Source: Escherichia coli 042
GTDB lineage: Bacteria > Pseudomonadota > Gammaproteobacteria > Enterobacterales > Enterobacteriaceae
DNA length: 64,000 nt
Assembly (NCBI RefSeq): GCF_000027125.1
Contig: NC_017626.1
Reading direction: 5' to 3' (one strand)
The notes under the pieces were generated by a model. It was not told where the DNA came from. It ran no database searches and saw only the letters and a list, made by a program, of their open reading frames with translations. Each line of letters begins with the position of its first letter. Position 1 is the stretch's first letter. A program made the position numbers and the translations under genes. Positions 4,825 through 63,388 of the stretch are shown one piece after another.

Positions 4825-6183
4825 TTAAAATTTCAGGGCGTTAGCGATATCTTCTTCGCTCTCTTCTTTATCAATCGCGTTTTGTGCTTTGTTAGCGACC
4901 ACAACAAAGGGCAGATAAATTAACGTTGCGATACCAAGGTTGAAGAGTGCGACCAGCAATGCGGCGACGCTACCGTTGGTGTTAAAGAAGGCTCCCAGAC
5001 CGGTTGGCATGGTCCACGGTGCAATATTGGTCACCGGAGGAATAATGCCCATGTAGTACGCTGCGAGGGTGATTGCCGCCAGAATCGGTTGTACCAGTAC
5101 AAACGGGATAAACATCACCGGGTTCATGATAATTGGCAGACCAAACAGAATCGGTTCGTTAATCTGGAAGATGCCGGACGGCAGCGCCAGTTTTGCCACC
5201 TGACGATAATCAGCACGGCGAGAGGCGATAAAGATAGCCAGGATCAGGCCTAAAGTCGCACCACTGCCACCGAGGAAAATAAAGGAGTCCAGCATCGGCT
5301 TGGCCCAGATATGGAAGGTCTTACCGGCTGCCAGCGCCGCTTCGACGGAACCATATTGCTGATAGGTCGCGATATTTTCCAGCGCCCAAGGCGTCATAAT
5401 GCCGTTGTCCAGTGCGGTCAGCGCCAGCGCACCATGAATACCGAAGAACCAGAGCAGTGGAACAAAGATCACATAGGCCCAGCCCACCACGCTACCCAAC
5501 GATGCCAGTGGGGTTGAGATGGTATCCATAATGATCTGATGGAAGTTGGTGCCCCAGGTATTCAACGCCCAGGCAATAATCCCCATCACGGAAAGAATAA
5601 TAAAGCCGGGAATTAAAGCCGAGAAGGAACGCGATACTGAAGCAGGTACGCTATCGGGCAATTTAATGACCCAATTGCGGCGGACAATAAAGGTAAACAT
5701 TTCTGCCACCACCAGGCCAATAATAATCCCGGAGATGATATTCGCCCCACCTAACCAGTTTGCGCCAACCGCATAGGCCTCACCGACACTATATGGGGTG
5801 ACGGTCATAAATGCTGCAACGGATAACAACCCGGCCGCCAGCGCATCGACTTTACGCTCTTCTGCCAGCGCCATGCCAATAAAGAACGGTGCCATTAAAG
5901 ACATTATCCCTAATGTTCCGTTATATACGTTGCCGCCAATACCTTTCAGACCATTAAGTGTTTCAATGGTTGAGGCATCCAGGCGAATACCTAAGGAATA
6001 AAAAAACGACCCCTCCCCAAAGCTTAGAAAAACGTTGTTAATTAATACAAACATGGCCCCCGCAAGGGTTAACGGCATTAAGCGAATAAAGCCATTTTTG
6101 ATTGCATTAACGTGTGGCTGCTTTCCTATTTTAACTGCAAAAGGGAGGAGTACCTTTTCAAGCGATGCAATAACATTACTCAT
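4825..6183 (-). CDS. chbC: PTS chitobiose-specific EIIC permease
   Basis: 452 aa highly hydrophobic polytopic membrane protein; operon position. Confidence 0.9.
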
Positions 6184-6267
6184 AGAAAAATACCCTTAAA
6201 AACCGCAATTTAAATATTGCGGTATTGATTTATGAAATAACTCTTTGACGGGAAAATTTAAAATAAA

Positions 6268-6588
6268 TTAATTTGCTGCGGCTTTTTTAATCGCTGCAAC
6301 CGCAGCCTTAAGCACGCCTAAACCATCGACTTTGCCATAAAGCAGCGAGTCAATTACTTCAACCGGTTTGTTGGGTAACAAACGCTGGATTTCGGGCAAC
6401 ATATAAGCAATCTGCGGCCCTAATAACACGACATCGGCATTCTGACCTTTTTCACCAGCCAGTGTTTCCGGAAATGCTTCAATAATGACCGGAACTTCAT
6501 ATTTTTCTGCCTGTGCGCGCATTTTTGATACCAGTAAAGAGGTAGACATGCCCGCAGAACAAAACAGATAAATGTGTTTCTTTTCCAT
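6268..6588 (-). CDS. chbB: PTS chitobiose-specific EIIB component
   Basis: 106 aa ORF with N-terminal [17 protein letters not shown] (phospho-cysteine EIIB motif); first gene of operon. Confidence 0.9.
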
Positions 6589-8330: not shown

Positions 8331-8450
8331 CACAAAACTATGCAAATTCAATATATTGCATGAGTCGAATAGGCCTGACAGGCGTAGCACGTCAGACGGT
8401 GTAACCTTTGTCATCAACCCGCCTCTTTTTTAATCGCTCCCCGCCTGTTA

Positions 8451-49824: not shown

Positions 49825-50238
49825 TCAACCGTTGATTTCTTCGCCGTTTTCGCCATCGGTAAAGCGTAAAGAGGCTGAGTTAACACAATAACGTTCACCC
49901 GTTGGCTGCGGCCCGTCGGGGAAGACATGCCCCAGATGGGCATCACAGTTACCGCAACGAATTTCTATGCGCTGCATTCCATGTGACAAGTCTTTGATAT
50001 AACGAATGGATTCTTCACTCACCGGTTCGTAGAAACTGGGCCAGCCACAGCCGGAATCATACTTGGTTTGGGAATGAAACAGCGGGGCATCGCAGATCAA
50101 ACAGTGATATACGCCGTCACGCTTGTTATGCAGTAAACGACCCGTAAATGGCGGCTCTGTCCCATGATTCTGCGTCACGTAGAACTGCATCTCGGACAAA
50201 TTTTTTTTCAGTTCTTCTGCCGAAGGTTTATTAGCCAT
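49825..50238 (-). CDS. msrB: Peptide methionine sulfoxide reductase MsrB
   Basis: ORF trimmed to ATG at 50238; two CxxC zinc motifs (CLICDA, CGNCDAH) and C-terminal catalytic Cys region; 137 aa. Confidence 0.9.
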
Positions 50239-62610: not shown

Positions 62611-63388
62611 TTAATCCCGCAATATATCGGCCTGGCGTTTGCCCCAGGCCTTTCTTAAACATAGTAATAAAGGCCGTTGTTGAATCATACCCCAGCGTAT
62701 GAGCAACTTTCTGTACAGTATCGCCTTTCACTAATCCCTGAAGCGCCATAATCAGCTGTAACTGCTGACGCCACTGGCGAAAACTCAACCCCGTCTCTTT
62801 CACTATCAGTCGGGCAAGATTGCGTTCACTCATCGCAAAAAAGCGAGCCCATTGCCCCAATGACCCCCACTCGACGGGCTCTTTCGCCATCATCTCCACC
62901 ATCGCGCGAATTTTAGGATGAGAAGAAACGGGTAGGTGCAGCTGTTGTTGTGGCTGCTGAGGGAGTTCATCAAACAGGACCTGAATTAATCTGCGGGTCA
63001 TCGGCTCAGCACGCTGAGTCGACGTTCTGTTTGCCAGGGTTAAAATTAATTCCCGGCATAAGGGCGATATTTTCAATGTGCAACAGGTTGTCGGCATTGT
63101 CACTGCGCTGGGTTCGATAAACAGAAAACAGAGTTCAGCGTTAGCTGTCACTTGATTGCTATGTTCCACCCCGCCCGGTATCCAAACCGCATATTGCGGT
63201 GGCACCATCCACAAAGCATTTTCCACCGTACAGGTAATTGCACCATGTAGCGCCAGTATCAGCTGTCCTTTGCGGTGCTGATGTACAGGACTGGTTAACT
63301 CATCCGTTCCGGCGTGAATACAAAATGCGACCGCGGCTTCATGGTGTCGGTCGGGTTCATAGCCATTGAGATTCAACCTGTGCATCAT
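62567..63388 (-). CDS. yeaM: AraC-family transcriptional regulator
   Basis: 273 aa ORF; cupin-like N-terminal region and C-terminal AraC-type HTH; 3' end overlaps yeaL by 44 bp in convergent orientation. Confidence 0.85.

Follow-up and report, generated by a model that had tools for sequence, protein, structure and literature searches.

The 84-nt spacer between chbB and chbC of the chitobiose operon (positions 6184-6267, minus strand), located in a 64,000-nt stretch of Escherichia coli 042 DNA that was analysed as a whole and is hereafter called the window, is the already published decoy for the small RNA ChiX (SroB/MicM). Next to the decoy site stands a hairpin which, as shown here by covariation, is an autonomous RNA stem-loop selected as structure rather than as sequence. 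We tentatively suggest that this hairpin serves as a docking site for Hfq. For the explanation as a whole, i.e. a known ChiX decoy accompanied by a separate conserved hairpin with a putative Hfq-docking role, we estimate a probability of about 0.5. The decoy being already known, the covariation and the fixed spacing of the hairpin amount to a minor new detail.

Layout of the chbB-chbC spacer

The chitobiose operon runs along the minus strand of the window. According to the open reading frames and the RefSeq annotation of identical sequence, the upstream cistron is chbB (PTS N,N'-diacetylchitobiose IIB; 6268..6588), with its TAA stop codon at 6270-6268, and the downstream cistron is chbC (PTS IIC; 4825..6183); chbA, chbR and chbF come after chbC in the order of the open reading frames. 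The spacer holds the intercistronic position within chbBCARFG that is expected of the chb decoy for ChiX. Its composition of 25% G+C (75% A+T) agrees with the original prediction, in which an AT-rich spacer had been placed at exactly these coordinates. Over 6175-6275 the sequence matches that of E. coli K-12 MG1655 completely (100% identity), and 5,385 of 5,403 complete E. coli genomes carry it with an identity of 99% or more; the PGAP annotation of identical E. coli sequence assigns no feature to the spacer.

In the mRNA sense, the spacer is composed of UUUAUUUUAAAUUUU, CCCGUCAAAGAG UU AUUUCAU, AAAUCAAU, ACCGCAAU AUUUAA AUUGCGGU, UUUU and AAGGG UAUUUUUCU, followed by the AUG of chbC. The first of these elements, the U/A-rich tract UUUAUUUUAAAUUUU (6253..6267), begins immediately 3' of the chbB stop codon and is a candidate rim-binding sequence under the general rules for Hfq (PMC5207318, 10.1101/2021.04.25.441314). 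The ChiX-complementary decoy site (6232..6252) consists of CCCGUCAAAGAG (6252-6241, 12 bp), a UU internal loop and AUUUCAU (6238-6232, 7 bp), and is connected by the single-stranded 8-nt linker AAAUCAAU (6224..6231) to the stem-loop ACCGCAAU-AUUUAA-AUUGCGGU (6202..6223; 8 bp, 6-nt loop, about -10 kcal/mol). A short U tract, UUUU (6198..6201; five U when the last base of the stem is included), lends the stem-loop a terminator-like look in Escherichia. The translation initiation region of chbC (6181..6197) contains the Shine-Dalgarno sequence AAGGG (6197-6193), the UAUUUUUCU spacer and the ATG (6183-6181), and the hairpin ends 4 nt before this Shine-Dalgarno sequence in E. coli. The perfect 8-bp inverted repeat with its 6-nt loop is thus present as first noticed. 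It reads ACCGCAAT-TTAAAT-ATTGCGGT on the plus strand (6202-6223) and, since the operon is on the minus strand, the palindrome in the form first quoted is the antisense of the mRNA.

No Rfam family matches the spacer at the gathering threshold. The sole match at this threshold in the window is the sRNA ES036 (CssrF), located between nadE and cho at 8334-8376 (+) with 38.9 bits (threshold 37.6). Some E. coli genomes (e.g. E. coli AVS0151, L082 866-1563) have an IS1 element in the promoter region of chb, where it separates osmE from chbB and does not touch the spacer; IS insertions in this region are a known way to activate the cryptic chb/cel operon. The chbC gene of E. coli AVS0151 is annotated as frameshifted.

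Pairing of the spacer with ChiX

The ChiX query of 84 nt is present as a single copy between ybaK and ybaP in 5,422 of 5,426 E. coli genomes, and its identity was checked against Rfam sroB (RF00368; 82 bits). RNAduplex, when applied to the full RNAs without restriction, yielded an unrealistic structure of -41 kcal/mol with long loops; hence ChiX was scanned against 30-nt windows on both strands of the 64-kb sequence (21,324 windows). The chb decoy site ranks first among all of them (mean -9.6, sd 3.0; z about -6), with a predicted duplex of -28.6 kcal/mol between nt 10-37 of the spacer (6258-6231) and nt 37-64 of ChiX, against a mean of -12.4 kcal/mol (sd 2.8) for shuffled spacers. The core of this duplex, at ChiX nt 38-58, is composed of 12 bp between CCCGUCAAAGAG and CUCUUUGACGGG and 7 bp between AUUUCAU and AUGAAAU, with a 2x2 internal loop between the two helices. 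Extended complementarity to the ChiX seed, which distinguishes the decoy, reaches up to the base of the ChiX terminator stem. The original prediction had named the spacer as a ChiX decoy and a lack of pairing as the observation that would speak against it; the strong predicted duplex, the best in the window, and the complete identity to K-12 MG1655 bear this proposal out. Two other strong matches to ChiX, at 62855-62884 (-) and 49897-49938 (+), are G+C-rich imperfect duplexes inside open reading frames that use the ChiX terminator stem, and are not credible targets.

Pairing of the chbB-chbC spacer with ChiX, and promotion of ChiX decay by this pairing, are well documented (PMC4098024, PMC8383071, PMC4474525, PMC4104026, 10.1101/2021.05.11.443692, PMC5145812). 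The decoy was described by Overgaard 2009 in E. coli and by Figueroa-Bossi 2009 in Salmonella, as summarized elsewhere (PMC4098024, PMC8383071, 10.1101/2021.05.11.443692), and the chb complementarity has been reported to extend into the ChiX terminator stem (PMC4104026). In vivo, induction of chb transcription results in lower ChiX levels and in de-repression of chiP (PMC4098024, PMC8383071, 10.1101/2021.05.11.443692). Since the sequence is identical and the locus is the same, the published K-12 decoy and the spacer of the window are one element.

The palindrome is outside the ChiX duplex, its stem starting 8 nt 3' of the ChiX site (6202-6223 as against 6232-6252). In the papers on the decoy consulted here the adjacent conserved hairpin goes unmentioned; it may be described in the two primary papers of 2009.

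Covariation and spacing of the stem-loop

As a pattern alone, the palindrome is modestly unusual: when the spacer is dinucleotide-shuffled, 4% of the shuffles contain a perfect inverted repeat of at least 8 bp with a loop of 3-8 nt. The folding energy of -10.5 kcal/mol, on the other hand, is matched by 1 of 500 shuffles, and the pairing probability of the hairpin is about 1.0 in all sequence contexts tested.

To compare orthologues, chbB-chbC spacers were extracted from the 80 loci found by a ChbB protein-based scan of GTDB species representatives, sampling Escherichia, Citrobacter, Salmonella, Enterobacter, Lelliottia, Leclercia, Raoultella, Pluralibacter, Trabulsiella, Yokenella, Kosakonia, Cedecea, Buttiauxella, Proteus and Aeromonas. 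All Enterobacterales loci carry a spacer, of 73-169 nt. The Aeromonas loci (L072-L077) have a chbB-chbC gap of 10-14 nt and a GTG start for chbC, with no U tract, ChiX site or hairpin, so that the whole spacer is confined to Enterobacterales among the sampled genera. Leaving out Aeromonas, 72 distinct spacers were aligned with MAFFT (alignment A1). The U-rich run 5' of the ChiX site is found in every orthologue, with a variable length of ~11-40 nt.

In this alignment, 93.6% of the 550 cells in the helix columns are paired and five of the eight helix pairs are altered on both sides. Compensatory cells number 58, compared with 15.3 +/- 2.8 in column shuffles, none of which reached 58 in 500 trials, and the covariation score is 0.328 against 0.151 for the column shuffles. 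When the 3' partner was slid by 1-3 columns as a control, the paired fraction fell to 18-56% of cells. The same hairpin is also the RNAalifold consensus of a second alignment, covering -47 to +60 around the chbC start. As a negative control, the 9-bp hairpin GCUGCGGUU...AGCCGCAGC in the last chbB codons (6275-6306, -) showed uncompensated third-position changes and no covariation. A two-hairpin, sRNA-like processed fragment bounded by this 6275-6306 hairpin was considered and rejected, the latter being a by-product of alanine codon repeats.

The arms read ACCGCAAU / AUUGCGGU in Escherichia, Citrobacter and Salmonella, GCCGUAAC / GUUGCGGC with one U·G wobble in Enterobacter, GCCGUCAUC / GAUGACGGC in Pluralibacter, GCCGCCG / CGGCGGC in Cedecea, ACCGCGCGA / UCGUGCGGU in Kosakonia and GCCGCAAG / CUUGCGGC in Buttiauxella. 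The base of the stem, CCG/CGG, is invariant. The stem has 8-9 bp in 60 of the 72 spacers and only 4-5 bp in Proteus, the loop varies in sequence and in length (3-9 nt), and the folding energy averages -10.2 kcal/mol, lying between -8 and -12 in most genera. The position of the stem is also strongly constrained. Its 3' end is located 17-19 nt from the ATG in 72 of 72 spacers and 4-5 nt from AAGG, and Buttiauxella and Cedecea hold the distance to the ATG despite the divergence of their ribosome-binding sequence; on the other side, 16-20 nt separate GUCAAAGA from the stem in 71 of 72. The freely varying loop, the invariant CCG/CGG base and the fixed distance to the ribosome-binding site together suggest a generic structural role of the helix.

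The same data bear on whether the palindrome acts at the DNA level, as an operator for a dimeric regulator, or as an element of the plus (antisense) strand. The repeat is a perfect DNA dyad, its plus-strand copy is followed by a T-rich stretch, and the sroB model gives a sub-threshold match to the plus strand at 6200-6289 (22.2 bits; threshold 44). However, the half-site is not conserved in sequence, the arms having covaried into the unrelated pairs of Pluralibacter, Cedecea and Kosakonia. Wobbles, moreover, lie nearly all on the mRNA-sense strand, the second alignment containing 22 G·U/U·G cells but just 2 A·C cells, which argues for a sense-strand RNA structure instead of a DNA operator or an antisense element. 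The sroB match arises from the 21-nt complementarity alone: beyond this core the flanks show no similarity to chiX (P = 0.91 and 0.65), by which the idea that the spacer is an inverted degenerate copy of chiX was likewise dismissed. We consider an operator or antisense function very improbable.

Two side observations were made in the survey. In Raoultella and relatives (L049:2822-2990, L053, L055, L056), the spacers extend to 167-169 nt, compared with about 80 nt elsewhere; the additional ~85 nt directly 3' of the chbB stop codon fold into a long hairpin (AAAACUC...GAGAGUUU) and may be a small inserted repeat element, while neither the ChiX site nor the conserved stem is altered. A record titled Chryseobacterium sp. 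18061 (L034) carries a chb locus of the Enterobacteriaceae type, with a typical spacer and a ChbB 95% identical to that of E. coli, and this assembly is probably contaminated or mislabelled.

Separability of the stem-loop and the ChiX site

Cross-genus duplexes were scored with E. coli ChiX against the spacer of each genus. The predicted energies are -26 to -30 kcal/mol in Enterobacteriaceae, -21.6 kcal/mol in Proteus, -16.8 kcal/mol in Cedecea and Buttiauxella, and -12.8 kcal/mol, a background level, in Kosakonia oryzendophytica. In the latter spacer (L065:2822-2894), a strong stem (-13.6 kcal/mol) is present with its usual spacing to the ATG, and the ChiX complement GUCAAAGAG is missing. Proteus represents the converse case, in which the ChiX site is kept and the stem is weak (4-5 bp). 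The two elements are therefore separable, and the persistence of the stem in a Kosakonia spacer that has no ChiX complement implies that the conserved role of the hairpin is probably not simply the shaping of the decoy.

The chb site of Proteus (L059-L069, L076) reads CCAGUCAAAGAG, which would form a perfect duplex with the sroB consensus of Rfam, CUCUUUGACuGG (GACuGG), and not with the GACGGG of E. coli. This hints, from sequence comparison, that ChiX and its decoy co-vary, and we predict that Proteus ChiX reads CUCUUUGACUGG. For K. oryzendophytica, we expect either the absence of chiX or the use of a different decoy.

Conservation of the stem independently of the ChiX site, together with the freedom of the loop to vary, is what would be expected of a nuclease barrier or processing boundary. 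The stem could shield the chbB-decoy segment from 3'-to-5' exonucleases or, after an RNase E cut in the AU-rich linker, become a 5'-terminal hairpin stabilising chbCARFG, so that decoy action would be uncoupled from loss of the distal genes. AU-rich single-stranded flanks are typical RNase E substrates, and such flanks border the stem, which itself is stable and forms with a probability of about 1.0. For most genera, however, the stem is modest (-8 to -12 kcal/mol) and in Proteus very weak, and the fixed distance of 17-19 nt to the ATG is explained no better by a barrier than by the other models. A barrier function seems to us unlikely.

Terminator-like features

The hairpin followed by U residues might also act as a weak intrinsic terminator, attenuator or pause site, at which some RNA polymerases stop or pause after chbB; expression of chbCARFG would then be lowered relative to chbB, and a short transcript of chbB and the decoy would arise, with a 3' end resembling that of an sRNA. 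The stem-loop is stable, with 8 bp including four G-C pairs and about -10 kcal/mol, and UUUU(U) follows it in Escherichia. In a consensus scan the palindrome comes up as terminator-like, albeit on the plus strand, and the FnrS covariance model, in a sub-threshold match on the mRNA strand (6198-6311, -; 25.9 bits against 60), aligns its terminator to the hairpin and the U5.

Nevertheless, on a d'Aubenton-Carafa-type discriminant the window scores -8.0 and Salmonella -31.7. The median is -32.7 and only 1 of 72 orthologues exceeds 0, while the osmE terminator 600 nt away scores +29. The U tract is also poorly kept: UUUU(U) is restricted to Escherichia and a few Citrobacter, most genera have just three U, set off from the stem by an A or C, and Buttiauxella has AAUAAA with no U tract, and yet the stem is conserved in all of these. 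The genes downstream need to be transcribed, ChiX is trapped by intact mRNA according to reviews (PMC4474525), and Term-seq supplements, which cover conditions without chb induction, contain no chb 3' ends. Thus, the hairpin is not a canonical intrinsic terminator, and we regard partial termination, attenuation or pausing as no more probable than the nuclease barrier.

Folding and accessibility of the decoy site

The original prediction suggested that the palindrome structures the decoy region, which can be phrased as a passive insulator: the hairpin would sequester the only G+C-rich sequence of the spacer, and the ChiX platform and the chbC ribosome-binding site would thereby remain single-stranded and independent of each other. 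We evaluated this by opening energies computed in silico. Opening the ChiX site costs 2.0-2.3 kcal/mol in the wild type and 3.7-6.2 kcal/mol, i.e. 1.7-3.9 more, when a single arm is replaced by its complement, and the cost returns to 2.0-2.4 kcal/mol in the compensatory double mutant. By contrast, plain deletion of the hairpin raises it only to 2.4-3.3 kcal/mol (+0.4 to +1.0), and for the SD-AUG region the change in opening energy is +0.4 kcal/mol. The hairpin thus barely affects the modelled exposure of the ChiX site, for which it does not seem to be needed; the small effect of the deletion implies that the stem solves a problem made by its own arms. The original suggestion is consequently retained in part: the palindrome takes no part in ChiX pairing, from which it is separated by its coordinates, while the arm mutants and their compensatory rescue lend slight in silico support to a structuring effect.

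A closing helix around the hairpin, between the CCC of the ChiX site and the GGG of the Shine-Dalgarno sequence, does not strengthen the insulator either. Its probability is 0-0.09 with flanks of 100-200 nt (orthologue median 0.07), and it was seen only in folds of short context. We judge passive insulation to be somewhat less probable than the barrier or the attenuator.

Two further pairings were considered. An 'anti-hairpin' pairing of UUUAAAUUUUCCCGU with the 5' arm and loop, rejected here, has 12 matches in 15, mostly A-U and unconserved, against a hairpin probability of about 1.0. Kissing of the ChiX 5' loop with the chb loop or with UUUAAG at the Shine-Dalgarno sequence is unlikely, as the ChiX loop has 3 nt in the MFE fold and the chb loops are unconserved.

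For the chbC Shine-Dalgarno sequence AAGGG (6193-6197) itself, pairing is predicted with a CCUUU within chbC, near +38 to +42 (~6140-6146, -); both sides are invariant in 66 sequences and hence offer no covariation by which to judge the pairing. With 100-nt flanks, opening of the SD-AUG region costs about 7.4 kcal/mol.

Discussion

In the explanation that we favor, transcription of chbBCARFG exposes a single-stranded, AU-rich stretch of chb mRNA, CCCGUCAAAGAG-UU-AUUUCAU, to pairing with the ChiX seed and the base of its terminator stem. Pairing titrates ChiX and leads to its decay, by which the chitoporin gene chiP is de-repressed; this has been shown by others, and the identity of the element and the predicted pairing are confirmed here. 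The hairpin is a separate element, with the decoy site 8 nt upstream of it and the Shine-Dalgarno sequence of chbC 4 nt downstream. Together with the U-rich sequence that follows it around the Shine-Dalgarno sequence, it may constitute a 'hairpin + U' docking site for Hfq beside the ChiX site. The docked Hfq might help ChiX-Hfq to anneal to the decoy, cover the chbC ribosome-binding site when ChiX is in excess, or both.

We infer this role, in which Hfq would dock beside the ChiX site and across the U-rich ribosome-binding site of chbC, from several lines of evidence and hold it as possible rather than likely. On mRNAs, the peaks of Hfq look like terminators of the hairpin + U type, and the rim sites used by targets of ChiX are UA-rich (PMC5207318; see also 10.1101/2021.04.25.441314). 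The chbC mRNA has been described among the targets of ChiX, with enrichment in Hfq co-IP (PMC10710024), and the sub-threshold alignment of the FnrS terminator to the hairpin and U5 is consistent with an sRNA-like appearance. Docking of Hfq would also explain why chbC can behave as the target of an sRNA whose pairing site is 50 nt upstream of the AUG.

Several observations do not fit easily with Hfq docking. The U tract is internal and not 3'-terminal, is short in most genera (3-4 U) and is absent in Buttiauxella. The sequence 5' of the stem is not U-rich, being AAAUCAAU in E. coli and a CA-rich linker of the CACACACAAU type in many genera. Furthermore, Proteus has the ChiX site with a stem of only 4-5 bp, and Kosakonia has the stem without the site. 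Since the chb operon is unexpressed under standard conditions, it falls outside the coverage of Hfq CLIP.

Among the roles considered for the hairpin, we place Hfq docking ahead of the nuclease barrier and the attenuator, which we rank equally, and passive insulation after these. A broader proposal is that the hairpin and the U-rich surroundings of the Shine-Dalgarno sequence form a functional part of the ChiX circuit, whether as an Hfq-docking, pause or attenuator module of sRNA-like layout. Both the efficient capture and destruction of ChiX upon chb induction and the silencing of chbC by ChiX/Hfq from 50 nt upstream would then depend on the hairpin module. We regard this proposal as doubtful, and somewhat more so than Hfq docking by itself.

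The ChiX site is textbook knowledge, and its rediscovery adds nothing. What may deserve attention is the adjacent stem-loop, whose structure is clearly selected for throughout Enterobacteriaceae, Proteus having weaker forms of it, and which is held at a fixed spacing to the decoy site and the chbC ribosome-binding site. If the stem is needed for the efficiency of the decoy, for recruitment of Hfq or for repression of chbC, the mechanism would be refined and a design rule for engineered sponges would be obtained; otherwise it would be an ordinary intercistronic stem-loop. To our knowledge, the ChiX-chb decoy was the first bacterial 'sponge' mRNA. It now serves as a template for synthetic sponge RNAs (10.64898/2026.05.19.726096).

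Compared with the published chbBC decoy or 'trap-mRNA' for ChiX (Figueroa-Bossi 2009; Overgaard 2009), the spacer shows no difference: the locus and the organism are the same, the sequence is identical to that of K-12, and so is the complementarity of 12 + 7 bp. The hairpin shares with the terminator-Hfq modules of sRNAs and sponges, such as AgvB and 3'ETS-leuZ (10.1101/2021.04.25.441314) and the CLIP motif (PMC5207318), a G-C-based stem-loop followed by U and placed 3' of a single-stranded segment complementary to an sRNA. Unlike these modules, the chb hairpin is internal to an operon, its U tract is short and unconserved, and it fails the terminator discriminant.

The REP element in malE-malF is an intercistronic stabilising stem-loop, and the chb hairpin resembles it as a conserved stem-loop between two cistrons of one operon. 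The chb stem differs in being single-copy, much shorter and not of REP sequence. In Spot 42-sdhC and SgrS-manX, Hfq is guided by the sRNA to repress from a distance, the sRNA pairing well upstream of the ribosome-binding site, where an A/U-rich potential Hfq site is located. The chb arrangement, with distant upstream pairing and an A/U-rich potential Hfq site at the ribosome-binding site, would be comparable to these systems purely by analogy.
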